A stretch of 64,000 nt of DNA. Source: an uncultured bacterium. GTDB lineage: Bacteria; Patescibacteriota; Minisyncoccia; Phycocordibacterales; Phycocordibacteraceae. Below are positions 5,945 to 58,528 of the stretch, piece after piece. Made by a program: the position numbers and the translations under genes. The stretch lies in the NCBI GenBank assembly GCA_903825105.1, contig CAIJZI010000006.1:1399-65398 (forward strand), read 5' to 3'. The notes beneath the pieces were generated by a model. That model was not told where the DNA came from and did not search any database. It saw only the letters and a program-made list of their open reading frames with translations. Position 1 is the stretch's first letter, and each line of letters begins with the position of its first letter.

Positions 5945-7054
5945 ATGCTGAAAAAGATGTGGTCGACTTGTTCAAGATCAAGTCGTTTTTGGTGTTGGAC
6001 GGGAGTTGGTGTTATCGTGCTCGCTTTCGTTTATCTATTCTTTTTCGCCAACATTTTTCAAACTGAATATCGCTCGCTCGCGGCTGATGCACCGGAAAAA
6101 TTTATTCCATTGCCGGTATTTAATCGCGCTGACTACGACGCGCGCCTCCTCGCCCTCGCACACTTAGGGGTCGGACCGCTAAGTGAACTTAGCGGTCCGA
6201 CCCCTAAGTCGGCCACATCAACAGCGACTTCAACGCCGACGCTCTGGCCCGTAAAGACAGCATATCCAGACGCCGGCGCGATTCTCCCTTTTAAACGCAT
6301 CGTCGCGTACTACGGCAATTTTTATTCAAAAGGAATGGGCGTGCTCGGTGAATATCCTTCTGACCAGATGCTCGATATGCTAAGAAATGAAGTCAAGGTT
6401 TGGTCAGCCGCAGATCCGACCACTCCCGTCGTGCCCGCGATCCAAGAGATCGCTGTCGTCGCGCAGGCGAGTGCTGGCAGAGAAGGGAAATATATTTTAA
6501 GAATGCCAGATGAGCAGATTGATCACGCGCTCGAGCTCGCGCACAAGATAAACGGCATTGTGATTCTCGATGTGCAGGTAGGGAAGAGTACGCTCGAACA
6601 CGAGCTCCCGATGCTCGACAAGTATCTCGCGATGCCTGAAGTGCATCTCGCTATCGACCCAGAATTCTCGATGAAATTTGGCGATAAGCCGGGAACGGTC
6701 ATCGGTACTTTTGATGCAACCGATATCAATTATGCAGTTCAACATCTCGCAACTATTGTAAAAGAAAATAAGCTCGCGCCGAAGATTCTCGTCGTGCACC
6801 GCTTCACTCAAGCGATGGTGACGAATTATGAAAAGATACAGACCTCGCCTGAGGTGCAGATCGTGATGGATATGGACGGCTTCGGCTCGAAGGCAAAAAA
6901 GTTTAATACCTATAAGCGCGTTATTTATCCGGAGCCAGTGCAATTCACGGGCATCAAATTATTTTATAAAAATGACAACAATGCCGACGGCATCCTCTCT
7001 CCCGCAGAAGTGTTAAAAATGCTCCCCACGCCGATTTATATTCAGTATCAATAA
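5945..7054 (+). CDS. Hypothetical membrane-anchored protein (start moved to internal ATG so it does not overlap rpmG)
   Basis: N-terminal TM helix 'WTGVGVIVLAFVYLFFF'. Contains a 46-nt perfect palindrome at 6163-6208, in frame. Confidence 0.45.
   Translation: MLKKMWSTCSRSSRFWCWTGVGVIVLAFVYLFFFANIFQTEYRSLAADAPEKFIPLPVFNRADYDARLLALAHLGVGPLSELSGPTPKSATSTATSTPTLWPVKTAYPDAGAILPFKRIVAYYGNFYSKGMGVLGEYPSDQMLDMLRNEVKVWSAADPTTPVVPAIQEIAVVAQASAGREGKYILRMPDEQIDHALELAHKINGIVILDVQVGKSTLEHELPMLDKYLAMPEVHLAIDPEFSMKFGDKPGTVIGTFDATDINYAVQHLATIVKENKLAPKILVVHRFTQAMVTNYEKIQTSPEVQIVMDMDGFGSKAKKFNTYKRVIYPEPVQFTGIKLFYKNDNNADGILSPAEVLKMLPTPIYIQYQ
6163..6208. repeat. 46-nt perfect palindrome of the same GTCsGAC family inside ORF 5945-7054 (encodes 'LGVGPLSELSGPTPKS')
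   Basis: CTTAGGGGTCGGACCGCTAAGT-GA-ACTTAGCGGTCCGACCCCTAAG. Confidence 0.75.
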
Positions 7055-7088
7055 GCATTTTAAATGTTGGACATCGGAAGTCCAACAT

Positions 7089-7391
7089 TTACTTTTCGCC
7101 CTTCAGAATTATTCGCCCGTCAAATCCGCCGCGGTCGGCGAGCTTTTGGAGACGCAATACCTCCACGTCAGCATACTCGGGTAATCTTTTCAGTGCCTCG
7201 ACGACTTCTATCACATCTGCCAATTCTTCAGGATCGCCAGCTTCGTTAAATTCGCCAACTTCTTCTGCTAATTTTTTAATCAGTTCAGTTTTGTATTCTT
7301 CAGGCGAGGCAATTCTTTTTTCATACGGTACGCCCTTTGCATCCATTATTTCAGGAATGCGATCTCGCACCAGCTTGTTGTAACTTGTCAT
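7089..7391 (-). CDS. MazG-like nucleoside triphosphate pyrophosphohydrolase (house-cleaning NTPase fold)
   Basis: 100-aa all-alpha protein; 'EExGEFNEAGDPEELADVIEV' matches the MazG/HisE EExxE…D metal-binding helices. Confidence 0.55.
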   Translation of the reverse strand: MTSYNKLVRDRIPEIMDAKGVPYEKRIASPEEYKTELIKKLAEEVGEFNEAGDPEELADVIEVVEALKRLPEYADVEVLRLQKLADRGGFDGRIILKGEK

Positions 7392-7409
7392 AAAATAATT
7401 CTATCACGC

Positions 7410-7447
7410 ATAAAAAAAGAAAAGGGCTTCGCCGAAGCGAAGCCCTT
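7410..7447 (-). terminator. Intrinsic terminator for the 7462-8052 gene
   Basis: Hairpin AAGGGCTTCGC-CGAA-GCGAAGCCCTT followed by a T-run on the minus strand. Confidence 0.6.
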
Positions 7448-7461
7448 GTGGTGTTGTGCCG

Positions 7462-8052
7462 TCAGAATGAAAAATCGACAGCAAACGTTGTGTTTGTTTT
7501 TCTGGTATCGCGGTCGTAGAGAGTCGCGCCCCAGACGGTCACATTTTTCCGCGCGGCGTACTCGACACGCGGTCCGATTCCGCTGGCTGTCGCTTCGTCC
7601 ATCATGCCGATGTTGAAATTCTTCGGCAGGTGATATACGGCTGTGATGTAGCGGTATGGACCACTCGCGCCGTTTTCGAAGACTCCGAAGAAATCCGCTT
7701 TTTTGACAGTGGCACTGAACATGCCTGCGTAGCGGATCCCGTTCGGGTTCATTTCGCGTCCAGCAGCGACGCCGAACTGGAGCCACGAAGCGGGCTTCCA
7801 TGTCGGGCCGGCATAGGCCTCGAACCAGCTTGAGCCGCTCCACACCTTCTCGGTGAAACTATAAACACCAATAGAAGATGTCAGTTGGTGTCTGTACATC
7901 CCGATCAGTTGGTAGTGCCCCGTAGCCGATTGGCCGCGGTTTTCGATGAAGATGCCGAGATCTTTCTTCTCGGCTGCTGTCGGTTTGTCCGCCGCGGGGG
8001 CGGAGACCGAAATGATTGCAAACAACATCAAAGAGCAAAAAAACTTGTTCAT
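7462..8052 (-). CDS. Secreted hypothetical protein (signal peptide)
   Basis: Start moved to 'MNKFFCSLMLFAIISVSAPAA', preceded by GGAGGA 6 nt upstream. A cleavable signal peptide is likely. Possible beta-rich protein. Confidence 0.5.
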   Translation of the reverse strand: MNKFFCSLMLFAIISVSAPAADKPTAAEKKDLGIFIENRGQSATGHYQLIGMYRHQLTSSIGVYSFTEKVWSGSSWFEAYAGPTWKPASWLQFGVAAGREMNPNGIRYAGMFSATVKKADFFGVFENGASGPYRYITAVYHLPKNFNIGMMDEATASGIGPRVEYAARKNVTVWGATLYDRDTRKTNTTFAVDFSF

Positions 8053-9504: not shown

Positions 9505-9526
9505 CTTATGCAGTATACTAGAGTTA

Positions 9527-12310
9527 ATGGAATCTACACCACGATTGTCATCACCTGAAGAAGAGTTGTCCTATTTGCGTGAGCAGGTTGCACAAAAAGA
9601 AAAAGAATTACAAAAGACGCGAGAAGAAAATCCGACCGCAAATCTGCCAACGCGAGAAGAAATTATTTCTGAACATCTTGATGCGCACAAAACTGCAGCG
9701 CCTGAAATCCTCGCGGGCGAATATCGAATAAGTGAATCAGCGCTAAACGAGACAGCAGAAAAAATTATAAAGGAGTGTACTCTCGGTAGTAGCGAACAGA
9801 TGATACGGAGTTTACAAAAAACGATGGAAGAAAAGGGTATTAAAAACACTTTTGCGATTTTAGAGAAGATGAAAGATCCTCAAATGGTTGACGACTTTCA
9901 TCGCTACATCGTGCGCTACATCGCCGCAGGATTACCGATGACGGGCATAGACGAAAAAGCTCCGCGCTTCCAAGCGCTTAAGATGACGCTTTATGAGATC
10001 TCTCTGCCCGAACCGAAGAGTGATCAAAATGCGCGAGCGAAAACACTCAAAGAACTTATCTCGGCGATGGAACAGCTCTACTCCGGCCTTCTCTCGATAG
10101 AAACAGCGGCAAGTGGCGAGCCGCGCTACTACACGCTCGAGCTCGCGATCCCCGCAGACAGCGCCGAGCTCCAATTCTACGCAGCGATTCCGAATGGAAA
10201 AAGAAATCTTTTTGAAAAGCAGTTGCTCGCTATATTCCCGAACGCGTATCTCGAACAGAAGCCCTACGACTATAATATTTTTTCTCAAAACGGCGTGGCA
10301 CTCGTCTCTGAAGCGCAGTTCACAGAAAGTCCTGCATTGCCGCTCAAGGATTATACCGACTTCGATTATGACCCGCTCAATGCGATTACCAATGCATTTG
10401 CAAAAATAGAAAAGACGAAAGAGGGCGCGGCGCTGCAGATTATTGTCGAGCCGCGCGCCGAGCGGCATGTGAAGCATTATAAAAAAATTCTTCAAGCTCT
10501 GCGCAAGGGTGAGAGTAAGTCGTCTGCATTTGGTACGCCAGAAACAGCGTTTGGTACTTTTATGAGAGATACAAGCCGAGCGCTTTTATCGAATAAGCCG
10601 AAGGATAAAGAAAAGGCAAAACAAGAAGAAACGCGCCAGACCGAAGCGAATAAAACATACATCGAACAAATCGAGAAGAAGATCGCTGCGCCGATTGTCG
10701 GCGCGACGGTTCGTCTCGTGGTCTCTTCAGAAAATGAGGTGAAAGCGAATCAGGTGCTCGAAGAGCTCGAATCGGCATTTAACCAGTTTTCAAATACACA
10801 AGGCAATAGCCTCGAATTCAAGCGTGTTTCAGAAAAGAGAGATAAAGCATTTCGCGCATTAGAAAATTTCTCATTCAGAATTCCTGATGATTCAGCGCTC
10901 CCATTATCACTCCGCGAGCTCACGACGATCTACCACTTCCCGCCAGAGGGAATAGAGTCATCGCCGCACTTGAAACAGGCGCGCTTCACCCACGCACCTG
11001 CGCCACTCTCTCTCCCACAGGCAGGATCGCTTCTCGGTATTAATTCGTATAGAGGCGAGAAAACAGACATTTATCTCGTCCCAGAAGATCGTCTGCGCCA
11101 CCTCTATATTATCGGTCAGACCGGCACGGGTAAAACGGGTTTGATGAAGTCGATGATTATGCAGGATATTAAAAATGGCGAAGGCTGCTGCTTCATCGAC
11201 CCGCACGGTTCAGACATTCTCGACATTCTCGCGTCGGTCCCGCCCGAGCGTTATAAAGATGTTATTTATTTTGACCCCGCCGATCTCTCGCGACCATTCG
11301 GGCTCAACTTCTTGGAATACGATTTCTCGCGACCAGAGCAAAAGACATTTATTGTGAATGAACTGCTCTCGATCTTCCGTCGCCTCTACGGCGATGTGCC
11401 CGAGAGTATGGGCCCGGCCTTCGAACAGTACTTCCGTAATGCGACACTGCTCGTGATGGAGGACCCGGCGAGTGGTTCGACGATTCTCGACATCGCGCGC
11501 GTACTCTCTAACGACGCCTTCCGCGCAGAAAAATTAGAGAAATGTATGAACCCGATCGTGAAGCAATTTTGGAATGACATTGTCGCGAAGACGAAGGGTG
11601 ATTTCTCGCTCGCGGAGATTGTCCCGTACATCACGAACAAGTTTGACGACTTCACCGCGAACGATTTTATTCGCCCGATTATTGGTCAACAGGAATCATC
11701 GTTCAAATTCCGCGAGGTGATGGATACAAAAAAGATTTTGCTCGTCAATCTTTCTAAAGGCAGACTCGGCGAGAGAAATTCAAATCTCCTCGGTCTTATT
11801 ATTGTCGGGAAATTATTTATGGCAGCGCTTGGTCGCGCCGACAATCCGCGCGCAGTGTATCCGCCCTTCTATCTCTACATCGACGAATTCCAAAATGTCA
11901 CCACCGACTCGATCCCGGGCATTCTCTCTGAAGCAAGAAAGTATAAACTCTCGCTCTCGCTCGCGCACCAATTCTTGAAGCAGATCGACGAGAAGTTCCG
12001 CGACGCAGTCTTCGGCAATGTGGGCAATATGGCAGTATTCCGCGTCGGCGAGGAGGATGCAGAATTCTTTGAAAAGCAGTTCGCACCGATCTTTAAAGCG
12101 CTCGATTTCGTGAATATCGAAAATAGAAATGCGTATGTGAAAATCCTCGCCGGTGGCGTGCCACAAAAAGCATTTGATCTGCGCACTGCCGACCTGCCGA
12201 AGGGGAATCCGGATCAAATCGACGATCTTATTCACCTATCCTCTTCTACCTATGGGCGCGACCGTGCTACTGTAGAAACTATGATCCGCGAACGCTATTT
12301 AACGCGATAA
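9527..12310 (+). CDS. VirD4/TraD (TrwB)-like P-loop ATPase (T4SS coupling-protein / DUF87 FtsK-HerA superfamily) with long N-terminal extension
   Basis: Walker A 'IIGQTGTGKTG'; 'FIDPHG' (the DPKGE-like motif of coupling proteins); Walker B 'YLYIDEFQNV'; 'RKYKLSLSLAHQ' sensor region. 927 aa, with a ~480-aa coiled-coil/unknown N-terminus. Confidence 0.55.
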   Translation: MESTPRLSSPEEELSYLREQVAQKEKELQKTREENPTANLPTREEIISEHLDAHKTAAPEILAGEYRISESALNETAEKIIKECTLGSSEQMIRSLQKTMEEKGIKNTFAILEKMKDPQMVDDFHRYIVRYIAAGLPMTGIDEKAPRFQALKMTLYEISLPEPKSDQNARAKTLKELISAMEQLYSGLLSIETAASGEPRYYTLELAIPADSAELQFYAAIPNGKRNLFEKQLLAIFPNAYLEQKPYDYNIFSQNGVALVSEAQFTESPALPLKDYTDFDYDPLNAITNAFAKIEKTKEGAALQIIVEPRAERHVKHYKKILQALRKGESKSSAFGTPETAFGTFMRDTSRALLSNKPKDKEKAKQEETRQTEANKTYIEQIEKKIAAPIVGATVRLVVSSENEVKANQVLEELESAFNQFSNTQGNSLEFKRVSEKRDKAFRALENFSFRIPDDSALPLSLRELTTIYHFPPEGIESSPHLKQARFTHAPAPLSLPQAGSLLGINSYRGEKTDIYLVPEDRLRHLYIIGQTGTGKTGLMKSMIMQDIKNGEGCCFIDPHGSDILDILASVPPERYKDVIYFDPADLSRPFGLNFLEYDFSRPEQKTFIVNELLSIFRRLYGDVPESMGPAFEQYFRNATLLVMEDPASGSTILDIARVLSNDAFRAEKLEKCMNPIVKQFWNDIVAKTKGDFSLAEIVPYITNKFDDFTANDFIRPIIGQQESSFKFREVMDTKKILLVNLSKGRLGERNSNLLGLIIVGKLFMAALGRADNPRAVYPPFYLYIDEFQNVTTDSIPGILSEARKYKLSLSLAHQFLKQIDEKFRDAVFGNVGNMAVFRVGEEDAEFFEKQFAPIFKALDFVNIENRNAYVKILAGGVPQKAFDLRTADLPKGNPDQIDDLIHLSSSTYGRDRATVETMIRERYLTR

Positions 12311-12319
12311 TTTTTTAAT

Positions 12320-14896
12320 ATGCCTGAAAAACCTCGGAAAAAAGAAAATCTAAATACAAATGAGTGGGTAGAAGGTGGAACAAAACACAGCGAACTTCTT
12401 GAGAAATTTGAGGTGCTTCACGATGAAGGTCTCCTGCCAAAGAATTTTATGCCCACATTTAATTTTTTTGTTGGAAAAATGGAACGCGCAGTAGATGCTG
12501 ATGAAGAAGGAAAAATTGAAGGAGAAATAAACGAGTATATTGAAGACGGGCGCGTAAGGGCGACGAGACAACAGGGCGTTCAAAAACCAGAAGCTCCTAT
12601 CGCAGAAGAATTTCCTCAAGTACCTCAAGAAGATGTATTAGGAATACCGGCGGAAGAAAATGAAAACGAAGGAAGATCAGAAACGCCAGCTGAGACGAGA
12701 AGCAAATTGCGAGAGACGGTAGGTAAAATAGAAGATCTTCTTGGAAAAGCAAGTGTCCCAGGAGAATGGGCGACCGAGCGTTTTGCCAATCTCGACACAC
12801 ACCTCAACGAACAGTCCGATAAATTACGCGAAGCAGCGAAGGGATTCGGTTCAAAAGCCGCAGCGTTTGTGCACTCCACGGGAGAAAAAATAAAAGAAGC
12901 TCCAACTAATTTTGGGGCATATTTAGATGAGCGTTTGGATGATTTAAATGAAAAAATCGCTAGACTTGGAGCAGGAGCAAAGAGAATTTTAGGTAACATC
13001 CGTGGCGCTACTGGCAAGGCACTAAATAAATTCTTTGTCGAAAGATATTTTGGATTTGAAAGACGCGAAGTAGACACCGGCCCGCAACTGCCACCGTTCG
13101 CGAGCCAAGAAGATTATAACGAAGCTCTTGGGATAAAAAGTGATGCTGAATTGCCAGATCGGGAGCATCCAGTTGTAGAAGAAGATACAGATGCAAAATC
13201 AGAAGAAGCAGAAGTTCTGCCGCCAGAAAAAAAACCAGAAACAACTCCGCCAGCAAGACAGGAAAAAAACCCAAAACCAACTGTAATAGATGCAGTGAAT
13301 CCAGCCAAGCCAGCGCCTGCACCAGAGCGACCATCACCAAGTTCACAACCTAAAAAACCGTCAGTGCCGGCGCAACAGCCACAAAATGCTGGACAGCCGG
13401 TATCGCCAGAAGGTGATTCTCCAGAGAGAATGAAGGCAGAAATTGGTGAAATTATAGACGGAAGTGAGTCCAGAAAAGATGCATCTGAGAAGATTAAAAA
13501 ATATCTGAAGAACCGCAATGGAGAATTAGATAAAAAAGCCGAAGGATTTGGATCGAAGGTTGAGAAGATGTTCCACTCGCTCGGCGAGAAATATAATAAA
13601 ATGCCGTTGAAGTGGAAGCTCGCGATCGGTGTCGGGCTCGGTGTTGGTGCTGCTTTCGCAGGGCCATTTTCAGCGATCTTTGCCGGAGGGATTGCGCTTC
13701 AGCGCGCCGCAGGTCTCGCGGGGATGTATGTCAAATCTAAAAATATTCTCCAGAAAATGTCTGAAGGAACACACAGAGGATTTTTTGCAAAAGGAGAATA
13801 CAAAGGACTGTTTGCACACGATTATCACGAATTCTTCAAAGACAAATCAGAAACACAGCGAAAGTGGATCGCGTTTGCCATGGCGGGAGTGTACACAGCC
13901 GGTATGGGCCTTGCGATTGGCGAAGCGGTACATTACGCTCCGCAATTTTTGCATCACATGCTTGGCCACGATGGTGGCGTGGACGGAGGGGCGGTTCAAA
14001 GCGGTGGGAATGTTCCAGAGTGGATGCACCCAGCTCAAATGCCGACGCATACAGAAATGCCAAACCTCTCTGTCGACGCGTCGGCGGGGCACGGCTATGA
14101 GTTTATGGCGAAGCGGCTTTGGGAACAGGCACAAGCACAGCATCTCGACCCGAGTAAGTATGCTGCTGACAGCGATATGCATAAATTGCTCACCGCAGAT
14201 GCGCACTCGATAGACAAAGTCGTTCATCAGATCGCCGCTGACCCGAAGCACGCATTCTTTAATCATGATGGAACGAGCGTGATGATTGACCCACACGCGC
14301 ATATGACGATTGGTGCAGACGGCAATATTCATGTTGGAGCAGAAGTTCACGCTGCTGCCGGCGCGCACACGACGCCGGTCTATCCTCACCACGAAGCGCC
14401 CGTAGCTCACGCAGAAGCACCCGCGACAGTCGAGGCACATCACGCCCCAGACTCGAGTGTTGCAGATGTTAAACATGATTTGACGAACGAGAATGTTATC
14501 GATCATCAGTCTCCAACACACGACGCTCCGCACGCTGCGCCAGAAGTTGAACAATTGGCCGGACAAATTCTGCATCACCACGGGATCGATATCCCTACAG
14601 CCGAGCCGCACATCTATGCTGACAATCACACAAAGCACCTCTTTGTATTTGGCGGTAAGCCAGGTCTAGAACAAACAACGCTTATTAAAAATTATCTCTC
14701 AGCCAATCCAGATAAAATAGTATATGGAACGGATGACTCGGGTAAATATCGCATTCCTTTCCATTGGTTCCAAAAGCCAGATGGCGGAGGTGATATCGTT
14801 CCGGGCATACCGGTTCAAAAACGCGGGTTTCTCGGATTCTTCAAATCATTTATGGGCGCGCCAGATCCAAAAGAATTTCATGCTAAAATTAGTTAA
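12320..14896 (+). CDS. Large hypothetical protein with proline-rich linker, central TM hairpin and His/Ala-rich C-terminal region
   Basis: 858-aa ORF adjacent to the ATPase. 'PAKPAPAPERPSPSSQPKKPSVPAQQPQ' low complexity. TM 'LAIGVGLGVGAAFAGPFSAIFAGGIAL'. Repeated 'HAHMTIGADGNIHVGAEVHAAAGAHTT' His-rich segment. Confidence 0.45.
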   Translation: MPEKPRKKENLNTNEWVEGGTKHSELLEKFEVLHDEGLLPKNFMPTFNFFVGKMERAVDADEEGKIEGEINEYIEDGRVRATRQQGVQKPEAPIAEEFPQVPQEDVLGIPAEENENEGRSETPAETRSKLRETVGKIEDLLGKASVPGEWATERFANLDTHLNEQSDKLREAAKGFGSKAAAFVHSTGEKIKEAPTNFGAYLDERLDDLNEKIARLGAGAKRILGNIRGATGKALNKFFVERYFGFERREVDTGPQLPPFASQEDYNEALGIKSDAELPDREHPVVEEDTDAKSEEAEVLPPEKKPETTPPARQEKNPKPTVIDAVNPAKPAPAPERPSPSSQPKKPSVPAQQPQNAGQPVSPEGDSPERMKAEIGEIIDGSESRKDASEKIKKYLKNRNGELDKKAEGFGSKVEKMFHSLGEKYNKMPLKWKLAIGVGLGVGAAFAGPFSAIFAGGIALQRAAGLAGMYVKSKNILQKMSEGTHRGFFAKGEYKGLFAHDYHEFFKDKSETQRKWIAFAMAGVYTAGMGLAIGEAVHYAPQFLHHMLGHDGGVDGGAVQSGGNVPEWMHPAQMPTHTEMPNLSVDASAGHGYEFMAKRLWEQAQAQHLDPSKYAADSDMHKLLTADAHSIDKVVHQIAADPKHAFFNHDGTSVMIDPHAHMTIGADGNIHVGAEVHAAAGAHTTPVYPHHEAPVAHAEAPATVEAHHAPDSSVADVKHDLTNENVIDHQSPTHDAPHAAPEVEQLAGQILHHHGIDIPTAEPHIYADNHTKHLFVFGGKPGLEQTTLIKNYLSANPDKIVYGTDDSGKYRIPFHWFQKPDGGGDIVPGIPVQKRGFLGFFKSFMGAPDPKEFHAKIS

Positions 14897-14910
14897 TAAT
14901 TAAAAATAAT

Positions 14911-15231
14911 ATGCCACCAACACAAAACAATATGCAGGACGAATTAACAGCAGCGATCGCGACTGATCTCGGTATCAAAGATCTCCCGCTCGCTGAGCAA
15001 CAGCAGCTTATCTCGCAGTTCGGCGAAGTCGCGCTGAAGGCGGCGACGATGGCAGTACTCGAGAAGTTGTCTGAAGAAAAGAGAAATGAATTCGCGACGA
15101 TAGCCGAGAGTGGCGACCCAGTAGCGCTTAAAGCATTTCTCGATAGAGAAGTGCCCGATCACGAAAATATCACGAAGACAGCAGTCGCAGACGAGGTAAA
15201 AAGGTTTAAGGATTTTCAATCTGCAGCGTAG
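14911..15231 (+). CDS. Small hypothetical protein
   Basis: 106-aa ORF in operon position between the large protein and the FKBP gene; no motif recognised. Confidence 0.35.
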   Translation: MPPTQNNMQDELTAAIATDLGIKDLPLAEQQQLISQFGEVALKAATMAVLEKLSEEKRNEFATIAESGDPVALKAFLDREVPDHENITKTAVADEVKRFKDFQSAA

Positions 15232-15267
15232 TATACTGGAAGCTATAACAATAAATAATCGTATCGT

Positions 15268-15810
15268 ATGAATCCAACCCAAACAGGTATCGCTGTAGCA
15301 CTCGCGCTCGTTGTTGTTATCTTCTTTTTCGTCTTTGACGGGATGTCATTGTTTCGTCAGTCGGCCTCAGCACCAACACAAGAAATAACAGCAACCACAA
15401 CTGATCAATCTATGGCTACAACTTCAACAAATTCTGTACAAGCAAATGTTACCGAACTCCAGATAACTGACGAAGTCGTCGGTACTGGCGCTGTGGCAAA
15501 AGCGGGCGACACAGTTGTCGTCGCATATACGGGTAGCTTCACAAACGGAAAAGTCTTCGACAGCTCAGTCGGGAAGGCTCCTATCGCAATCGTGACTTGC
15601 CCAAAGGGAGTCACGACCGGACTTTGTATGAATCTTGGCGCAGGGCAGGTGATTAAGGGTTGGGACGAAGGACTTGTCGGTATGAAAGAGGGCGGGAAGA
15701 GAAAGCTTGTTATCCCCGCATCGCTTGGGTACGGCCCAAATGACTATGGATCAATCCCGGGTAATTCGACACTCGTCTTCGAAGTCGAACTCATAAAAGT
15801 CGCGAAATAA
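15268..15810 (+). CDS. FKBP-type peptidyl-prolyl cis-trans isomerase (membrane anchored)
   Basis: 'GDTVVVAYTGSFTNGKVFDSS', 'GAGQVIKGWDEGLVGMKEGGKRKLVIPASLGYGPN' and 'GNSTLVFEVELIKV' are the canonical FKBP signature blocks. Confidence 0.8.
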   Translation: MNPTQTGIAVALALVVVIFFFVFDGMSLFRQSASAPTQEITATTTDQSMATTSTNSVQANVTELQITDEVVGTGAVAKAGDTVVVAYTGSFTNGKVFDSSVGKAPIAIVTCPKGVTTGLCMNLGAGQVIKGWDEGLVGMKEGGKRKLVIPASLGYGPNDYGSIPGNSTLVFEVELIKVAK

Positions 15811-15855
15811 CTTGGGTGTCCGACACCCAAGTAACTTGGAGGTCGGACCTCCAAG
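15811..15855. repeat. Double-hairpin palindromic element (GTCsGAC-core family), intergenic copy
   Basis: CTTGGGTGTCCGACACCCAAG-TAA-CTTGGAGGTCGGACCTCCAAG. The first unit is identical to the units inside leuS at 55443-55489. Confidence 0.75.
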
Positions 15856-15890
15856 TGGAAGGGAAGAAAAATAAAAAAAGAAAGGGCGCG

Positions 15891-15921
15891 ATTTACTTAG
15901 CGGCGAGACACCTAAGTAAAT
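15891..15921. repeat. Palindromic hairpin ATTTACTTAG-(CGGCGAGACAC)-CTAAGTAAAT inside a duplicated terminator segment
   Basis: Perfect 10-bp inverted repeat. The flanking 'AAAAAAGAAAGGGCGC' is repeated 40 nt downstream, where an intact terminator stem follows instead. Confidence 0.5.
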
Positions 15922-15923
15922 TA

Positions 15924-15966
15924 AATAAAAAAGAAAGGGCGCATCCCGCTTCGCGGAATGCGCCCT
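15924..15966 (-). terminator. Intrinsic terminator for the 15974-16552 gene
   Basis: GGGCGCATCCCGC-TTC-GCGGAATGCGCCC hairpin with a T-run on the minus strand. Confidence 0.6.
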
Positions 15967-15973
15967 AGAGTGT

Positions 15974-16552
15974 TTAGTATGTCACAGTGTGCAACACCCG
16001 GATCTTTTCCCTGTATTTGGAAAGATCCAAGACCCCGGCGGTGCACGCGTCGACGACATACTTTCGTAGTTTGAGCCGTGTTGTTACGCCGTTCACAATG
16101 TTCGGTACCGCCATTGCGGAGGCGCCGTATCCTGTATACGAGAGCATATTGGCTCCGGCGAACATCATTGAGCCAACTCCTACACCGACTCCGCCTCCAA
16201 GGCCGCCCGTCATGCCGTCGATCATGCCCATTGCCAAGTAATTCGGCTGTACATTTCGAGTATGCTCCTGACACGCCGGCGTTATCGCCGCCATGACGGC
16301 AAGTGGTTCGGCGAGTTGCACCTCGAGTTGTGCTTCGTTCGTCACTGTCTTGGAAAGACGGACGGCGAAGCTGGGCTGCATGTTCTTGAGCCTGAAGGCG
16401 TATCCGTATGAAACAATCGCGATCTGTTCGCTGTCGGGCAGTGTGACGAGGATCTTGACGGGCTCCTTCTTTTCCTTGGCAGAAACCGTCGCTGGAACTG
16501 CCAGAATCACCATCGCCGTTGCGATGATGCAAAACACTGCGAACTTCTTCAT
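15974..16552 (-). CDS. Secreted glycine-rich hypothetical protein
   Basis: Start moved to 'MKKFAVFCIIATAMVILAVPATVSA' (signal peptide), preceded by AGGAGAG. C-terminal 'GGLGGGVGVGVGS' Gly-rich segment. Confidence 0.5.
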   Translation of the reverse strand: MKKFAVFCIIATAMVILAVPATVSAKEKKEPVKILVTLPDSEQIAIVSYGYAFRLKNMQPSFAVRLSKTVTNEAQLEVQLAEPLAVMAAITPACQEHTRNVQPNYLAMGMIDGMTGGLGGGVGVGVGSMMFAGANMLSYTGYGASAMAVPNIVNGVTTRLKLRKYVVDACTAGVLDLSKYREKIRVLHTVTY

Positions 16553-16687
16553 ATAACTCTCCTTTGGGGAAGCCGCCGAGGGCGGCGTTGTTGGTGATAA
16601 AAGGTACAACCATTTATAAAGATACACGACCCGCGCGTTTTGTCAAGCGCTTGACAGAATTGACAAGATAGTGTATGTATGTAGAAG

Positions 16688-17374
16688 ATGATAACGAAGG
16701 GGCTCGTACACATAGCTGCGCAGATTATCTGCGCGGGGCAGAAGGCGTATGAAAGGAAGTGGATATTCCTCGTTATTTTCGTGCTTGTCTTCGCTCCGAG
16801 CGTCGGGACGCTCGCGCACTTCGATCTTTTGCCGACCTTGGCAGAGGCCGAAGGTAGCGCGAACAGTCTCGGTAGTTCGACGAATCAGCTCGCGGCGATT
16901 AGCTTAAATGCGCTGTCGCCCGCGCTACCAGAACTGCCTACGAAAATTGAAATTCAAAAAATTAATTTGAACGCGACGATTTCTAACCCAGAGACGACTA
17001 ACATCGAGGCTCTCGACAGCGACCTTCTCTCTGGAGCTGTGCGCTATCCGACCTCGGCGCGACTCGGCGAGAATGGCAATGTCGTCATTTTCGGTCACTC
17101 GAGCTACTTGCCGATTGTCGGGAATCAAGCGTATAAAACTTTTGACGGTATTCAGAAGCTCGTCGCGGGTGACACAATCACCGTGTATTCATCTGACCGA
17201 GCGTATGTTTATCAGGTAGAAAGTATGAAAAAGGAGAGCGCGAACGATGCGGTGATCCCGCTCTCGGTCACGGGAAAAGTTTTGACGCTTTCGACCTGTG
17301 ATTCGTTTAGCGCGAAGACCGATCGCTTCGTAGTCGTGGCGAATTTTGTTGAAAGTAACGCGGTTTCGTTTTAA
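16688..17374 (+). CDS. Sortase-family transpeptidase
   Basis: N-terminal TM anchor. 'VIFGHSSY…' His region and 'LTLSTCDSF' (TLxTC catalytic Cys motif). Confidence 0.7.
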   Translation: MITKGLVHIAAQIICAGQKAYERKWIFLVIFVLVFAPSVGTLAHFDLLPTLAEAEGSANSLGSSTNQLAAISLNALSPALPELPTKIEIQKINLNATISNPETTNIEALDSDLLSGAVRYPTSARLGENGNVVIFGHSSYLPIVGNQAYKTFDGIQKLVAGDTITVYSSDRAYVYQVESMKKESANDAVIPLSVTGKVLTLSTCDSFSAKTDRFVVVANFVESNAVSF

Positions 17375-17454
17375 TTAACGAAATCGCGTTACTCTCCGCA
17401 AAGGGAGAGATGTTCTTTCGAGTGTTGTTAGAGCTCGAGGACTGGAGACAGTAA

Positions 17455-18363
17455 ATGAAAATGCGCGTTGTAATCGTGCTGGCGTTCGCGATTGCGACGC
17501 TGGCTGTGACCGCTCATGCGGCCGAATGGAAATGGCAGCACTTTGGTGCTGCCCCGTACGCCACATCGCGAGATGAGGCCATGAGCAAGCGCCATGATGC
17601 TTTCCAAAAACTCGGCCTCACACATAAAGTTATTGATGAGCTTATGCGCGCGACCGAAAAGCCGGGAGAAAAGATTCGTCTAGTGAACGGCTACAAACTG
17701 GCAGCGATGCTGTCTAAGGGTGGTGTCGTGCACAACGATGTCTTAGTGGCCTTCGTCAAGCCGCCTATCAGCGGAAAGATGGAGTATGCTGCACCGGCCG
17801 AAAGGTGGCAGGTTCCAGTGGAGGGAAAGATCTACACGGTTATCCTACCGGAGATCTGCAACAACTGGAGCTCAGAACCCACAAAGCCAGCGCCAGTACC
17901 ACTTCCTCCCCCATGCGACAACTGTGCGGCGCCACCGCCACCGAAAGATAATTGCGTGACGATTTCATTCAACGCACCAATTGGCGGGAAAGTGCGTTGG
18001 GGTGTTGCCTCGGCGATCGGCCCACTGCCTCCAAGTTCCTGCAACGCGCAGAAACAGGGCAATGGCGAATGGACAGCGTGGTACGGTCAGTGTGATTCTT
18101 GCACTGGCGCCATCGAGTTCATCCGCGGAATCATTGGCAGATTCGCCGAGATATTTCACCGATTCGTGTATCCTGTCACACAGACGCACCAAACACTCCG
18201 CTTCCCGGAAGCAGTCAAGGCAGATGTAGTTTATATCTGTCTAGAAGATGCAAACGGGAGGCAAACCTACGGTGTGTATGTCACTCCAGATGATTGGAGT
18301 CACGGGGAAGTCGTTCATGAGATCTCAGATTTTCGATGGAAGTTCGTCGGGTATCCCGAGTAG
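17455..18363 (+). CDS. Secreted cysteine-rich hypothetical protein
   Basis: Signal peptide 'MKMRVVIVLAFAIATLAVTAHA'; multiple Cys pairs and 'PPPCDNCAAPPPP'. Confidence 0.45.
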   Translation: MKMRVVIVLAFAIATLAVTAHAAEWKWQHFGAAPYATSRDEAMSKRHDAFQKLGLTHKVIDELMRATEKPGEKIRLVNGYKLAAMLSKGGVVHNDVLVAFVKPPISGKMEYAAPAERWQVPVEGKIYTVILPEICNNWSSEPTKPAPVPLPPPCDNCAAPPPPKDNCVTISFNAPIGGKVRWGVASAIGPLPPSSCNAQKQGNGEWTAWYGQCDSCTGAIEFIRGIIGRFAEIFHRFVYPVTQTHQTLRFPEAVKADVVYICLEDANGRQTYGVYVTPDDWSHGEVVHEISDFRWKFVGYPE

Positions 18364-18435
18364 TTCTTTGGGGAGGGTGGTGGCTTTTAAAGCATCGCCC
18401 AACCCTTTTTATACGCTACGAAAGTAGCATGGAAA

Positions 18436-20364
18436 ATGAAAAAATTTCACAATGCATTCCAATATCTAAACAATCGACCGATTCTTTTCGGTCTATTCGC
18501 CATGCTCCTTACGGTTATGTTCGGTATGTCGATCGCTTTTATGACAGGAATGGTTACTCCCAATCAAGTTTTGGCAGATGTTATTGGGCCACCTTGTTGC
18601 GAGCCTCCGGTTCCTCCTCCGCCGCCGCCTCCTCCACCTCCGCCACCAGTCCCGATAGTTCCGGTGCCAGTCATTCCTATACCTGTGCCAACTTGTACGC
18701 TCTCGGCGAACCCGACTTCACTGCCAGTTGGCGGTGGGACTTCTGTACTTGATTGGACAACGACCAATGCGACGAGTGCCTCGCTTAATCAAGGCATCGG
18801 CGATGTCGCGCCAATCGATGCAGGCTCGCAGTCTGTTTCTATCGCGACGGATACGAATTTCATCTTGACCGTTTCTGGCCCGGGAGGGCAGACGGCCTGT
18901 TCTGCTAATGTGACCGTTGCTACACCGCCGCCACCTCCTCCGCCAAATACCCCAGCCTGTACGCTTATTGCGAATCCAGTAGCGATTCAAACAGGGTCGT
19001 CATCGTCACTTTCTTGGACAACGACAAATGCGACTTCATTTACGCTCGACAATAATATCGGTGCGGTAACGCCTGTTGCTTCGGGGAATAAATCTGTTTC
19101 TCCAACCACGACCACGACCTACACTGGCACAGCAGTAGGCCCGAATGGTTCGGTAATTTGTACGGCGATTATTACGGTCACGACAACTCCGCCGCCACCT
19201 GGTGGCACTATCGCGTGTACCCTTTCTGCCGCGCCCCCGATTATAAATTCAGGCAATTCATCGGTACTTTCTTGGACAACGACTGGCGCGACTTCTTTCA
19301 TAATCGACAACAATGTCGGTGCATCGACACCGGTCGCGGCTGGAACCGTTTCTGTTTCTCCAACTGTTGACACAACTTATATCGGTACAGCGACTGGCCC
19401 TTATGGAACAATCACTTGTTCGACAACGGTGACGATGAATCACGGCGGTGGCGGGTGTACGAGTAATTGTGGCGGAGGCGGAGGTGGTTCGTCGCCGACA
19501 GTTGTGTTGTCCGCAGTTCCTCATTCGATCTCACAACCATTTGCCTTTTTGTATCTCTCTCAAATCCCGTACACCGGCCTCGACCTCGGCCCTGTCGGCA
19601 CCACTATTTATTGGATCGTGCTCATTCTTGCAGCTCTTGCGATAACCTACTTTGTCCTCTTTGGCATCGTGCCTTTTATAAATCGTTGGGCACACAACTT
19701 CACTGCGCGCGTCTCTGCGGCGATTAATGGTCCGGAAACAGTTACTGTTCAATCAGTTAAATCAGTTCCGTCGCCAGCACCAGCGCCGAAACCTGCGCCA
19801 GAAACTTCGCAAAATTCATATTCTTCATACAACGGATTCAAATCATTCGCACGAAACGGGGCACTCTCGATTGAAGATATCGTGAAGGGCTTGTCACAAG
19901 AACAGCTCTCGCCCGCGTCTGAAGTTTTCGAAGAAGAATCAGTCGGAGATATTGTTGAACAAATGCAACACGAAGAAGAGAAGATTGAGACATTTCAGCC
20001 GCCCGTTCAAGAGGTGACGACAACTGCAGACGCAGGCGCCGCTTCTGTCCGCGGTCTCGCCATCGCTCTTATTGAAGGTGATCGCGCAGCAGTGTTTGCC
20101 GGTCTCCGACAGCAGGTGCGCGGGGGAGGATCTCCGGAACAACTGATTAATTCGATCGTCTGTATTCTCGACGATGTGTACCGTGCGCGTGTTGACGGCA
20201 CGCCGTGTGACGCAGACATTGCGCGTCGAACCGCGCGTTTTGCTACGCCTCTTTTGGAAAAACTGGTCGTGTCGCTCACCACAGCAATCGATGCCAGCTA
20301 TTCAGACGAGATAACCGGAGCGAAGCTCGCCCTCACTCGAGCACTCGCTACTATTGGCGCATAA
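18436..20364 (+). CDS. Surface protein with poly-Pro stalk, three tandem ~85-aa Cys-bracketed Ig-like repeats, a second TM helix and a C-terminal cytoplasmic domain
   Basis: 'PPVPPPPPPPPPPPPVPIVPVPVIPIPVPT'. The repeats begin 'CTLSANPTS…', 'CTLIANPVA…', 'CTLSAAPPI…', each with 'W/DWTTTNATS'. 'IPYTG' lies just before the TM helix. Confidence 0.55.
   Translation: MKKFHNAFQYLNNRPILFGLFAMLLTVMFGMSIAFMTGMVTPNQVLADVIGPPCCEPPVPPPPPPPPPPPPVPIVPVPVIPIPVPTCTLSANPTSLPVGGGTSVLDWTTTNATSASLNQGIGDVAPIDAGSQSVSIATDTNFILTVSGPGGQTACSANVTVATPPPPPPPNTPACTLIANPVAIQTGSSSSLSWTTTNATSFTLDNNIGAVTPVASGNKSVSPTTTTTYTGTAVGPNGSVICTAIITVTTTPPPPGGTIACTLSAAPPIINSGNSSVLSWTTTGATSFIIDNNVGASTPVAAGTVSVSPTVDTTYIGTATGPYGTITCSTTVTMNHGGGGCTSNCGGGGGGSSPTVVLSAVPHSISQPFAFLYLSQIPYTGLDLGPVGTTIYWIVLILAALAITYFVLFGIVPFINRWAHNFTARVSAAINGPETVTVQSVKSVPSPAPAPKPAPETSQNSYSSYNGFKSFARNGALSIEDIVKGLSQEQLSPASEVFEEESVGDIVEQMQHEEEKIETFQPPVQEVTTTADAGAASVRGLAIALIEGDRAAVFAGLRQQVRGGGSPEQLINSIVCILDDVYRARVDGTPCDADIARRTARFATPLLEKLVVSLTTAIDASYSDEITGAKLALTRALATIGA
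18700..19450 (+). repeat. Three tandem ~255-bp coding repeats (inside 18436-20364)
   Basis: Repeated peptide blocks 'SxLxWTTTNATSxxLxxxIGxVxPxxxGxxSVSxxTxTxYxxTxxGPxGxxxC'. Confidence 0.55.
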
Positions 20365-20384
20365 CTTGACACAAAAATAATAAT

Positions 20385-21137
20385 ATGTTAAACATCATAT
20401 ATATGAACAGTCCTGAAAACAGCCCAGCCCGCCGCATTACCCTCATCTGCCTCGCCGCAGTTGGCTTTATCGCACTCGTCGGAGCAGGCGTTTGGCTCGC
20501 TATTTATTCAACACGCTTTGTGCCAAATATAGTCAACGGCGCTGGCGAAGCCGCGGTGCAGTTCGGCGCTTGGTTTATGCCGAATCATAAATCCGATTCT
20601 TCATTATCAACTGCGTCAACGACCATTTCTTTCGGTACCTCAGCGACCTCTACGAGTTCAAATCAAACTACTCCATCAAAACAAGTTTCAACGACTGCAG
20701 GAGAAAAGACCAGTGATGTGTATCAAATAAGTGGGACGACAACGCCATCGCTCTACGGATTCCCCGATCTTATTGTGAATATAAATGCGACGGGATATTT
20801 AACGACAAGCTCGACCGATTCTTTCGTCGCGACTTCGACAATTCATTCTAACAATCGACCAGCGATATCTTTCACTATAAAAAATATTGGTACGAATGCG
20901 ACCGGCCTGTGGCGCTTTAGCGCATCAATCCCAACTCAGAATGCTTATATCTATCAGTCGCAACTCCAACAGTCGCTTAATCCAGGAGAGAGCATCGACT
21001 ACATTCTTGGATTCGACCAGCCGAACACTGGCGTAGACAAAACGATTTCGATTACTGCGAATTCTGATAATAGCGTGAGAGAATCACACACAGACAACAA
21101 CAGCTCTTCGGTGAAGATTACTATTCTCGGGAACTAA
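20385..21137 (+). CDS. Membrane-anchored Ser/Thr-rich hypothetical protein
   Basis: N-terminal TM 'ITLICLAAVGFIALVGAGVWLAIY'. S/T-rich linker followed by a beta-rich domain. Confidence 0.4.
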   Translation: MLNIIYMNSPENSPARRITLICLAAVGFIALVGAGVWLAIYSTRFVPNIVNGAGEAAVQFGAWFMPNHKSDSSLSTASTTISFGTSATSTSSNQTTPSKQVSTTAGEKTSDVYQISGTTTPSLYGFPDLIVNINATGYLTTSSTDSFVATSTIHSNNRPAISFTIKNIGTNATGLWRFSASIPTQNAYIYQSQLQQSLNPGESIDYILGFDQPNTGVDKTISITANSDNSVRESHTDNNSSSVKITILGN

Positions 21138-55987: not shown

Positions 55988-57034
55988 ATGAAGAAACAGA
56001 CAAAAACAGTGACTTTTTCATTTGACAGTGCTGCCTTGGTGAAGCGCCTTTTAGCTGCCACTCCAGAGCGTGCGCGCGGCGTTATTATCGAGCGTTTTGG
56101 CCTTGGGACGAATCCTGAACGCGAGACACTTGAAGCGATCGGTGACCGCTCGAGCATCACGCGTGAGCGTGTCCGCCAGATCGAGGCTGCAGGTCTCGAC
56201 GCGATTCGCGCGAGCAAAGTTTTTAAAGAATCGAGGGTTGCTTTTGATGAGATTGTTAAGTACATCCACTCGCTCGGAGCGATGGTTCCTGAAGAGGCAC
56301 TCCTCGCTGGATTTGGAAAAGATGAAAAGAGTCGTAACCGATTCCGTTTTTTCCTTATGCTCGACTCCGCTTTCATTCGTGAACGCGAGACCAATGACTT
56401 CCTCGCGCGTTGGCATGTTGACGCAGGGACAGCGAAGAGCATCCACGACGCCCTCTCTAAACTCTATTCAAAGTTGTCAGACGATGAGGTGATTACCGAA
56501 AGCGACATTCTCGATCGCTTCCTCGACGAGCTTAAAAGCGTGAACGACGCATACAAAAATGAAGAAGTGTTGAAACGATGGCTATCGCTCTCGAAGCACA
56601 TCGGTAGCAATCCACTTTCTCAGTGGGGTAAGACGACTGCGCCAGCGATTCGTATTAAGGGTATTCGCGATTATGCGTATCTCGCTATCAAGAGAAACGG
56701 CGCACCGATGCACTTCTCTGATGTTTCAAAAGCGATCGGCACACTCTTTTCTAAAGAGGCACACATCGCGACGACACATAACGAGCTTATTAAAGATCCT
56801 CGCTTTGTTCTTGTTGGTCGCGGCCTCTACGCGCTCTCTGAATGGGGATATGCTCCGGGGGTGGTACGCGATGTAATCCGCGAGACACTCGACAAGAATG
56901 GCCCGATGAAGAAGGAAGAAATAATGACTCATGTGAAGAAAGCTCGCTTTGTGAAAGACAATACGATTCTCGTTAACTTAAACGATTCACATTACTTCAA
57001 GCGCTTGAAAGACGGAAGATATTCAGCAGTGTAA
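55988..57034 (+). CDS. Hypothetical protein with N-terminal sigma-70 region-4-like HTH
   Basis: 'TLEAIGDRSSITRERVRQIEAAGLDAIRAS' matches the sigma-70 r4 'T.EE.G..F.VTRERIRQIE.KAL.KLR' pattern; rest of the protein unassigned. Confidence 0.45.
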   Translation: MKKQTKTVTFSFDSAALVKRLLAATPERARGVIIERFGLGTNPERETLEAIGDRSSITRERVRQIEAAGLDAIRASKVFKESRVAFDEIVKYIHSLGAMVPEEALLAGFGKDEKSRNRFRFFLMLDSAFIRERETNDFLARWHVDAGTAKSIHDALSKLYSKLSDDEVITESDILDRFLDELKSVNDAYKNEEVLKRWLSLSKHIGSNPLSQWGKTTAPAIRIKGIRDYAYLAIKRNGAPMHFSDVSKAIGTLFSKEAHIATTHNELIKDPRFVLVGRGLYALSEWGYAPGVVRDVIRETLDKNGPMKKEEIMTHVKKARFVKDNTILVNLNDSHYFKRLKDGRYSAV

Positions 57035-57100: not shown

Positions 57101-58528
57101 ATGGCGCCTCCAAGTAAAGATAAAAAACCAGAAAAAAAGCCAGAAAAAAAACCTGAACCAAAAAAAGATTCAAAAAAAAGTGGGGGGTTAAAGTTGCCGT
57201 ATTTCGACGACATTAAAAAGTACAATGATAAGTTAGTTGAAAACACCGGCATTCGGTTGAGTCCATGGCTTATATTCATTGTTGGTACTGTTATTCTCAT
57301 CCTTGGATTTCTCATCGCAGGGAATATGGTGTCGCTCGCGCTCTCGATCGCACTTTTCTTGGCGCCACTCTGGTTGCCGGTTCTCCTCCTTGGCGGAGCA
57401 TCAGCGCTCGGGATTATTTTAAAACGCTCTGAATTTATCTTTTCTCAAAAAACAATTTTGCTTGAGATAAAGCCGCCTCGCGACTTGGTGAAGACACCGC
57501 TCGCGATGGAAGCCTTTCTCTCTAATATGAACATCGGTTCTGGCGAGGGAACCTGGTATGCAAAGTCGCAGGGTAAGGTTCGCCCGTGGTGGTCACTTGA
57601 GATCGCCTCGCTTGAGGGCCAAGTACATTTCTTTATTTGGACGCGAGTAATTTTTAAACCGGTTATTGAAGCGCAGTTGTACGCGCAGTATCCAGGCGTG
57701 CAGGTTGTCGAAGCGCCTGACTATACCCGATTTATTTCTGCAGATCCTGAAGAATTTGGCTCGTGGGGCTGTGATTTTATTCATGTCGACAAAGATCCGA
57801 TACCGATTAGAACCTATATTGAATACGGGCTCGATAAGGTGCAGAAGGAACCAGAACAGGTCGACCCACTCGCGAACATTATTGAATTTATGGGCTCACT
57901 TGGGAAAGGAGAATATCTCTGGCTCCAATTTGTGATCAGAATGCACAAGGGCGAGAAATATAATAAATTAAATGCGAAAGGCAAGGTGTATACATGGACC
58001 GATGAAGCAGGAGAATTGGTAAATGAAATTCGTGCTGCGGCGAAAGATAAAGATGCACCTGGCCCAGGAATGCCAACTAAAGGTCAGGCAGATAAAATTG
58101 CTGCGATTGAGAGAAATGTTTCAAAACAAGCCTTCGATGTTGGCGCACGCGGGATTTATATCGCGAAGAAAGAGTCGTTTAATGCGGCACGCATACAAGG
58201 GATAATAAGTATGTTCAATGTCGTGAGTTCGAAGGGTTGGAATGGGCTTCGCCCGACGGGGTGGATGACTATGTTTAGTGATTACCCGTGGGAATTCGGC
58301 GTAGATAAATTAAAAAATGCGGTGAGAAGGGCAATGGTTGAAGCGTATCGCCGTCGACAATTTTTCTTCGAGCCATTTTCATTTGGTGTTGCGAAGGACA
58401 AAATAATGGTGATGAGTACCGAAGAGATCGCGACAGTATTTCACATCCCATCTCGCGCGGTAGAGACGCCAACCTTGGGCCGTATCCAGTCAGCGACGAG
58501 CGAGGCCCCGAGCAATCTGCCGGTATAA
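57101..58528 (+). CDS. Hypothetical membrane protein with Lys/Pro/Glu-rich N-terminus
   Basis: 'KKPEKKPEKKPEPKKDSKK' followed by two TM helices and a large soluble domain. Confidence 0.45.
   Translation: MAPPSKDKKPEKKPEKKPEPKKDSKKSGGLKLPYFDDIKKYNDKLVENTGIRLSPWLIFIVGTVILILGFLIAGNMVSLALSIALFLAPLWLPVLLLGGASALGIILKRSEFIFSQKTILLEIKPPRDLVKTPLAMEAFLSNMNIGSGEGTWYAKSQGKVRPWWSLEIASLEGQVHFFIWTRVIFKPVIEAQLYAQYPGVQVVEAPDYTRFISADPEEFGSWGCDFIHVDKDPIPIRTYIEYGLDKVQKEPEQVDPLANIIEFMGSLGKGEYLWLQFVIRMHKGEKYNKLNAKGKVYTWTDEAGELVNEIRAAAKDKDAPGPGMPTKGQADKIAAIERNVSKQAFDVGARGIYIAKKESFNAARIQGIISMFNVVSSKGWNGLRPTGWMTMFSDYPWEFGVDKLKNAVRRAMVEAYRRRQFFFEPFSFGVAKDKIMVMSTEEIATVFHIPSRAVETPTLGRIQSATSEAPSNLPV

Follow-up and report, generated by a model that had tools for sequence, protein, structure and literature searches.

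The locus described here lies in a window of 64,000 nucleotides (nt), that is, the whole stretch of contig CAIJZI010000006.1 of an uncultured bacterium that was analysed. Four genes on its forward strand follow each other closely: a gene for an ATPase of 927 amino acids (aa; 9527..12310), a gene for an 858-aa membrane protein, here called BIG (12320..14896), a DUF5663-like gene (14911..15231; 106 aa, Pfam DUF5663 with E 7.5e-4) and a gene for an FKBP-type peptidyl-prolyl isomerase with an N-terminal transmembrane (TM) or signal segment (15268..15810; Pfam FKBP_C with E 1e-28). The first two open reading frames (ORFs), as called, agreed exactly with those given in an earlier sequence-only reading of this DNA, made by a model without database searches. 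The gap between them, which that reading had put at 10 nt, is 9 nt long (12311-12319, TTTTTTAAT), so the close spacing holds; the BIG and DUF5663 genes are separated by 14 nt and the DUF5663 and FKBP genes by 36 nt. No terminator-like site was found between the four genes, and a strong terminator-like hairpin lies at 15936-15966, 3′ of the FKBP gene. The short gaps and the lack of an internal terminator indicate that the four genes are probably one transcription unit, with FKBP as its last gene. The ATPase, which is the main subject of this report, combines a nucleotide-binding motor assigned by its sequence to the lineage of the type IV coupling proteins (T4CPs; VirD4/TrwB) with an N-terminal domain of the VirB4 fold, carries no detectable membrane anchor and is conserved in the manner of a core repair gene.

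All four motifs that had been named from the letters alone were present in the ATPase, namely Walker A GQTGTGKT (aa 530-537), DPHG (aa 558-561), Walker B IDEFQ (aa 785-789) and RKYKLSL (aa 804-810), and the residues G530, G533, K536, D786, E787, R804 and K805 were invariant across 34 homologues of 30-48% identity. Pfam yielded TraG-D_C and DUF87 above the cut-off and TrwB_AAD_bind below threshold, and NCBIfam gave local matches to the TraD and CD1115 VirD4-like models; as to membership of the VirB4/CagE/TrbE family, no VirB4 family was obtained from Pfam or NCBIfam. Homologues of about 50% identity carried precomputed hits to T4SS-DNA_transf, TrwB_AAD_bind and TraG-D_C, and in homologue L034 Pfam TrwB_AAD_bind spanned profile positions 14-336. 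In a PDB profile search with diverse homologues, TrwB (7e-7) and DotL (9e-7) were the best matches, ahead of HerA, and FtsK was not listed. Comparison by hhalign with TrwB of R388 (NC_028464, the source also of the TrwK sequence) gave a probability of 96% and E 4e-9 over 266 columns, beginning at Walker A, crossing the helical insertion and ending past Walker B, and comparison with TrsK of pSK41 gave 95% over 308 columns, whereas the VirB4 proteins TrwK (10%) and TrsE (84%) matched only around Walker B, over 90-98 columns. The profile matches to TrwB and TrsK, set against the Walker-B-only matches to VirB4 proteins, indicate that the motor is coupling-protein-like and not that of VirB4, HerA or FtsK. 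Identity with HerA or FtsK was rejected, given the ranking of T4CPs above HerA, the absence of FtsK from the list and the lack of a HAS barrel or an FtsK gamma domain. PADLOC yielded only P-loop-level matches (mad8, DndH and HerA), and no defence context surrounded the gene.

An AlphaFold (AF2) model of the ATPase with a pLDDT of 84.4 comprised a helical head, an alpha/beta domain and the motor. The head (aa 1-145; 9527..9961, forward strand) is lineage-specific, with six helices in the model; it is the least conserved part of the protein and is missing from homologues of about 800 aa, whose alignments begin near aa 150. The alpha/beta domain (aa 146-480; 9962..10966, forward strand) is a DUF8128 domain, folded like the N-terminal part of VirB4. 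The motor (aa 495-927; 11009..12307, forward strand, with Walker A at 11114-11137 and Walker B at 11879-11893) contains between its Walker motifs a helical insertion at aa ~604-733 (~11324-11731), which is the equivalent of the AAD. The N-terminal extension of 480 aa named in the sequence-only reading is not one unit; it consists of the head and a separately folded domain. Precomputed hits to PF26449 (DUF8128), PF01935 and PF12696 were available for database protein P0001, which is identical to the ATPase, and PF26449 was listed for P0001 and all homologues; the local Pfam copy gave no DUF8128 hit on the ATPase.

When the model was submitted to Foldseek, the top matches were full-length TrwK/VirB4 chains over ~890-930 columns, followed by TrwB, which matched in the motor only (TM-score 0.65). 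The structure 4AG5, a VirB4 of which only the C-terminal domain is present, was missing from the list, indicating that what is matched in structure is VirB4's N-terminal domain. The ATPase therefore has the layout of a VirB4 protein with a motor sequence of the VirD4 type, and the earlier assignment to T4CPs instead of VirB4 is correct for the motor sequence and incomplete for the overall architecture, which is VirB4-like by its N-terminal fold. The combination of a VirB4-like N-terminal domain with a VirD4-like motor bears on the divergence of the two ATPases of type IV secretion systems (T4SSs). At the level of sequence, kinship of the N-terminal domain with VirB4 (TrwK of R388; Thermoanaerobacter pseudethanolicus VirB4, 4AG5) is undetectable, and motor profiles favour the T4CPs; hhalign detected no link of DUF8128 to TrwK, TrsD or a VirB4-like ATP-binding protein of Shouchella, the last giving a probability of 1%. 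With TrwB of R388, TrsK of pSK41 and DotL the ATPase shares a homologous nucleotide-binding motor, in which Walker A and B are separated by a helical insertion. It differs from TrwB in its 480 additional N-terminal aa and in its lack of a TM segment: no hydrophobic segment exceeded the threshold, whereas two N-terminal TM segments were found in TrwB by the same test. Unlike these T4CPs, it is encoded by a chromosomal, vertically inherited gene that is not linked to relaxase or T4SS genes.

A search of representative sequences returned 20,476 clusters at E-values of at most 1e-3 and 5,260 at E-values of at most 1e-30, and the core of the ATPase (aa 150-923) recurred in proteins of about 800 aa. 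Those homologues that are named belong to Paceibacterota, Kaiserbacteria and Minisyncoccota. Relatives comprising both domains (query aa ~204-908) were revealed by tblastn against plasmids in Streptomyces, Embleya, Shouchella, Niallia, Bacillus methanolicus, Clostridium botulinum and a haloarchaeon. In Shouchella clausii (NZ_CP012476), an 883-aa relative is followed by a replication-relaxation relaxase, and conjugal-transfer genes and a separate ATP-binding protein of 837 aa, which may be a VirB4 homologue, lie nearby. The relative from Embleya (NZ_CP108778) sits among a PrgI-family gene, a separate ATP-binding protein, a replication-relaxation relaxase and an NlpC/P60 hydrolase. Both proteins ('DUF87 domain-containing'/'T4SS conjugative DNA transfer family') have the same DUF8128-type N-terminal domain and motor as the window ATPase, as seen from BLAST (E 3e-39 for Shouchella and 1e-53 for Embleya, aa ~204-901) and from the profile of the N-terminal domain (96%). 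They differ in lacking the first ~145-200 aa and a BIG/DUF5663 partner, and in their position beside a relaxase, transfer genes and an ATP-binding protein. The occurrence of two-domain relatives beside plasmid relaxases and transfer genes indicates that the coupling ATPases of one class of conjugative elements in monoderms make up the family. A monoderm origin of the family agrees with the derivation of the Patescibacteria T4SS from monoderm conjugation machinery (Quinonero-Coronel et al. 2025, PMC12102498, cited here and below for individual passages).

The gene order DsbA, VTT (minus strand), ATPase, BIG, DUF5663, FKBP and TGT was kept in 35 related loci. When the related syntenic loci were compared with the window, the median identity of the ATPase motor was 84.6%, next to 82.1% for UvrB, and the DUF8128 domain (69.3%), DUF5663 (67.6%), TGT (65.2%), FKBP (53.2%) and the helical head of the ATPase (53.1%) followed. 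More distant ATPase homologues of 37-50% identity were chromosomal too, at other sites, namely at the end of the ribosomal spc operon (SecY-Adk-Map-...-ATPase-NDK), after FtsW-MurG and after ribonucleotide reductase genes. Conservation and chromosomal synteny of this sort mark a gene that is strongly constrained and passed on vertically, and not a mobile element. The sequence-only reading had named, as speaking against it, a classification of the ATPase as HerA/FtsK together with unrelated neighbours in other genomes; the classification was not obtained, and unrelated neighbours were found in the more distant genomes. In one relative of 49% identity (L038), a diversity-generating-retroelement pair consisting of bAvd and a reverse transcriptase (6571-7986) lies between Map and the ATPase homologue, directly upstream of the latter.

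Patescibacteria rely on other cells, and with their T4SS a secretion system of this kind was for the first time shown to be essential for growth. The majority of their VirD4-like ATPases have no linkage to a T4SS and no explanation: 5,713 VirD4-like homologues were counted in 2,918 Patescibacteria genomes, just 148 of them near virB4 (PMC12102498), and the window ATPase is presumably among the 5,713. It resembles these orphan proteins in phylum, in being unlinked to virB4 and in having no relaxase. Orphan T4CP homologues in Patescibacteria are thus already on record, as is the DUF8128 family. The passages of PMC12102498 drawn on here make no mention of domain architecture, of the missing transmembrane domain (TMD), of the level of conservation, of BIG-DUF5663 or of the DUF8128-only paralogue described below, and neither architecture, conservation level nor candidate partners are described in the cited passages of the other papers. 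One large family of these ATPases is now characterised by its lack of a membrane anchor, its docking domain of the VirB4 type and its core-gene conservation.

The same core-gene conservation, and the positions beside UvrB/TGT, at the end of the spc operon and after FtsW-MurG, would also suit an ATPase that plays no part in secretion and has been exapted to cytoplasmic housekeeping on DNA, for instance to chromosome segregation at division in the manner of FtsK or to end processing in that of HerA. A protein without a TM segment fits such a function, HerA, DndH and FtsK are structurally related to the motor, and exaptation of orphan T4CP homologues is left possible in PMC12102498. Sequence profiles, however, placed T4CPs above HerA and did not list FtsK, the N-terminal domain has the VirB4 fold, known to dock to T4SS membrane components, instead of a HAS barrel or FtsK gamma domain, and no NurA or Xer partner was seen nearby. 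We therefore regard a housekeeping function as unlikely.

BIG consists of a variable, acidic and proline-rich N-terminus (12320-13414), a conserved lysine-rich juxtamembrane stretch (aa 366-429; 13415-13606), a TM hairpin (aa 430-471; 13607-13732), a third TM segment (aa 515-537; 13862-13930) and conserved C-terminal regions at aa ~575-700 and 750-858 (14042-14419 and 14567-14893), all on the forward strand and delimited by composition, a conservation map and hydrophobicity. By the positive-inside rule, the N-terminus is predicted to lie in the cytoplasm and the last ~320 aa outside. The proline-rich stretch (about 20% proline over aa 260-365) and the hairpin had been recognised in the sequence-only reading, which had overlooked the third hydrophobic segment and had described histidine-rich repeats. 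A DNA-level scan detected no tandem repeats in the histidine-rich part of the gene, which includes the stretch HAHMTIGADGNIHVGAEVHAAAGAH at aa 659-683; histidine makes up 10.7% of the C-terminal 319 aa of BIG and 1.2 to 10.7% of the same region in homologues. The lack of a repeat and this range across the family indicate that the richness in histidine is a matter of composition in the window copy and not a family trait. The N-terminal part of the homologues is unconserved, acidic or proline-rich, and 38 to 510 aa long. No real relatives of BIG were found in Pfam, NCBIfam or PDB; hits to Apolipoprotein, PspA and YukC (E 0.01) were spurious and due to low complexity.

A word-based search retrieved only three homologues of BIG, and the family was revealed by tblastn, jackhmmer and a family hidden Markov model applied to the fetched loci; the 660-aa gene after the ATPase in L003, for instance, proved to be homologous to BIG (E 4e-54 and 2e-19). 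In 24 loci, among them L015 and L021, whose contigs end within the gene, the BIG homologue starts at most 45 nt past the ATPase stop codon. The DUF5663-like gene followed BIG in all 24 loci that contain the downstream end of BIG (the window and 23 related loci), and was missing wherever BIG was missing. The supposed two-gene unit is therefore really one of three genes (ATPase, BIG and DUF5663), and this within one Kaiserbacteria-like clade. The FKBP gene was syntenic in all related loci, including those without BIG, and belongs to the context instead of being a shown component of the ATPase module. In one Kaiserbacteria genome (L013), a 6-kb insertion of unrelated ORFs (11206-17634) parts the ATPase from the BIG homologue.

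A second DUF8128 protein is encoded in the window by a gene on the forward strand (57101..58528), as found by hhalign and jackhmmer. This paralogue of 475 aa has a lysine-rich tail, then two TM helices (aa ~54-108), then a stand-alone DUF8128 domain, and no ATPase domain. Alignment with the ATPase's N-terminal domain gave a probability of 98.2% and E 4.6e-14 over 281 columns in hhalign, which jackhmmer confirmed, and the domain ends in '...EEIATVFHIP...', a motif common to that of the ATPase. The order LeuRS, sigma-region-4-like gene, DUF8128-only gene, YceG and MnmA was kept in 80 metagenome loci, down to 34% identity. Its membrane helices and shared domain make the paralogue a second candidate for a membrane anchor or partner of the ATPase. 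Comparison of its DUF8128 alignment with TrsD of pSK41 gave 0.1% in hhalign, a single-sequence comparison which remote kinship could escape. Two contigs, one of a metagenome-assembled genome with the ATPase (L030) and one of a metagenome with the DUF8128-only gene (L086), have an equal length of 125,556 bp and are probably one and the same, in which case the two genes are about 60 kb apart there, compared with 45 kb in the window. In one metagenome lineage (L087 and L088, 428-1684) another ATPase paralogue, 44% identical to the window ATPase over part of the latter, is encoded about 6 kb upstream of the gene for the DUF8128-only protein. The sigma-region-4-like gene of the window (55988-57034, forward strand) encodes a protein of 348 aa in which a sigma-70 region 4 domain and a weak match resembling the delta subunit of RNA polymerase were found; identity is 71-85% with close relatives and falls to about 50% with distant ones, and the gene lies directly upstream of the DUF8128-only gene in 73 of the 80 loci.

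The reading that we favour, and to which we would give about an even chance, is that the ATPase is a chromosomally domesticated, vertically inherited descendant of a monoderm-type conjugative T4CP, which acts as a motor or receptor feeding cargo to an envelope channel and is accompanied by a clade-specific membrane module. Like its relatives, it would form a ring-shaped, NTP-driven motor or substrate receptor; having no membrane anchor of its own, it would use its N-terminal domain to dock on a partner in the membrane and pass macromolecular cargo to the channel with no relaxase involved. The most plausible channel would be the chromosomal T4SS of Patescibacteria, encoded outside the window; such a T4SS is common in Paceibacteria near dnaA (PMC12102498). 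BIG and DUF5663 could be a lineage-specific tether or envelope adaptor of accessory nature, on the model of TraJ/TraI of pIP501 (PMC7434980, likewise cited for individual passages). In that pair, as in TraG-TraJ pairs, a soluble coupling ATPase also adjoins a possible membrane tether. BIG is far larger than a TraI-type partner, with its 858 aa, its long disordered N-terminus and about 320 aa predicted to lie outside, and the likeness is one of gene arrangement only.

Several observations weigh against a secretory coupling protein with an attached membrane module. Motor structure alone does not tell VirB4 from T4CPs. No T4SS, relaxase or pilus genes were found in the window or in 39 related loci, where neighbours, judged as far as genes were listed or matched, were housekeeping or unannotated genes only. 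For Southlakia epibionticum, a T4CP homologue that is not essential and a T4SS that is were reported (PMC12102498); that homologue may be of another family. BIG and DUF5663 have been lost in three species (L001/L002, L007 and L011) with the ATPase unchanged, the position of BIG being empty in L001/L002 and L011 and occupied by a 163-aa remnant in L007, and L033 has an unrelated 610-aa ORF in place of BIG. Nor were BIG and DUF5663 found beside ATPase homologues of 37-50% identity, whose neighbours lack TM segments. Finally, synteny in the clade extends over the entire region, with FKBP, TGT and UvrB included, so that adjacency alone is no proof of functional coupling. Large neighbours without Pfam match in L039 (477, 763 and 122 aa), which has an ATPase homologue of about 50% identity, were considered as BIG or DUF5663 and rejected, being non-homologous and without TM segments.

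The loss of BIG and DUF5663 from three species that kept the ATPase shows that the module cannot be obligatory, and we conclude that it is a clade-specific, accessory module beside the ATPase. The two might even be independent of the ATPase and form a surface-exposed, fast-evolving envelope module, with a function in adhesion, metal binding or host contact, that merely adjoins it. Their joint gain and loss, with the ATPase staying behind without both, and their absence near the distant homologues are in keeping with such independence, as are the equal synteny of FKBP, TGT and UvrB and the much faster evolution of BIG (19-40% identity across relatives, compared with 61-87% for the ATPase). On the other side, the genes are co-directional and tightly spaced with no terminator between them, and docking could plausibly take place at the conserved cytoplasmic juxtamembrane segment of BIG (aa 366-429). 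Furthermore, T4CPs without a TMD are a recognised subfamily which needs a membrane partner, encoded next door in the known cases (PMC7434980). Independence of the two modules is accordingly a possibility to be kept in mind, if a somewhat doubtful one.

That the ATPase and BIG make up a self-sufficient, reduced two-gene device for DNA translocation or uptake, as had been suggested in the sequence-only reading, is the least supported of the explanations, and we consider it very improbable. The motor family moves DNA in conjugation, and BIG could in principle provide a membrane component; but about three TM segments are few for a channel, and BIG is restricted to one clade and was dispensable in three species. 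Pfam scans of the larger window ORFs revealed neither DNA-binding, relaxase, ComEC nor pilin genes in linkage with the pair. In Saccharibacteria, competence depends on ComEC (Wang et al. 2023, as cited in a passage of the review PMC12857230). The suggestion of DNA uptake was therefore not borne out.

A bolder reading would join the soluble ATPase, with its DUF8128 domain, and the paralogue that is TM-anchored and has DUF8128 only into a minimal translocation machine that has so far escaped notice, works without the T4SS and belongs to the core of Paceibacteria. At the membrane, the ring of motor subunits would be templated by the anchored N-terminal domains, and lineage-specific adaptors of the BIG-DUF5663 type would link it to the cell surface or the host. 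We put this forward as speculation and consider it unlikely. With BIG plus DUF5663 and the membrane-tethered docking-domain paralogue named as candidate partners, an orphan T4CP is turned into testable interaction hypotheses.

The genomic setting is that of an ordinary chromosome of a small-genome Patescibacteria (Paceibacteria/Kaiserbacteria-like) bacterium, in agreement with the type of host that had been proposed. The window carries housekeeping genes (ClpB, DsbA, TGT, UvrA, UvrB, UvrC and Ddl), and genes for DedA/VTT, FKBP, sortase, LeuRS, YchF, YceG and MnmA were found as well. Pfam scans of the 39 larger window ORFs yielded no VirB4, VirB6, relaxase, pilin/pilus or competence genes, while seven window ORFs of at least 150 aa were checked for hydrophobicity only, outside these scans; no VirB3, VirB6 or VirB8 genes were seen in the window or the related loci. 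The earlier statement that no other T4SS genes are visible thus holds for VirB4, VirB6, relaxase and pilus genes among the 39 ORFs, but had missed the second DUF8128 protein.

The DedA/VTT gene (minus strand) and the ATPase gene diverge, with only 22 nt between their start codons (9505-9526), and a promoter scan upstream of the ATPase detected no sigma-70-like site on the plus strand. Given the shortness of this gap and the lack of such a site, promoters must lie within coding regions or be non-canonical. Further downstream, the sortase gene is followed by genes for three proteins bearing an N-terminal signal or TM segment (16688-21137), one of 302 aa, one of 642 aa without family match and a CARDB protein of 250 aa, which are possibly sortase substrates.

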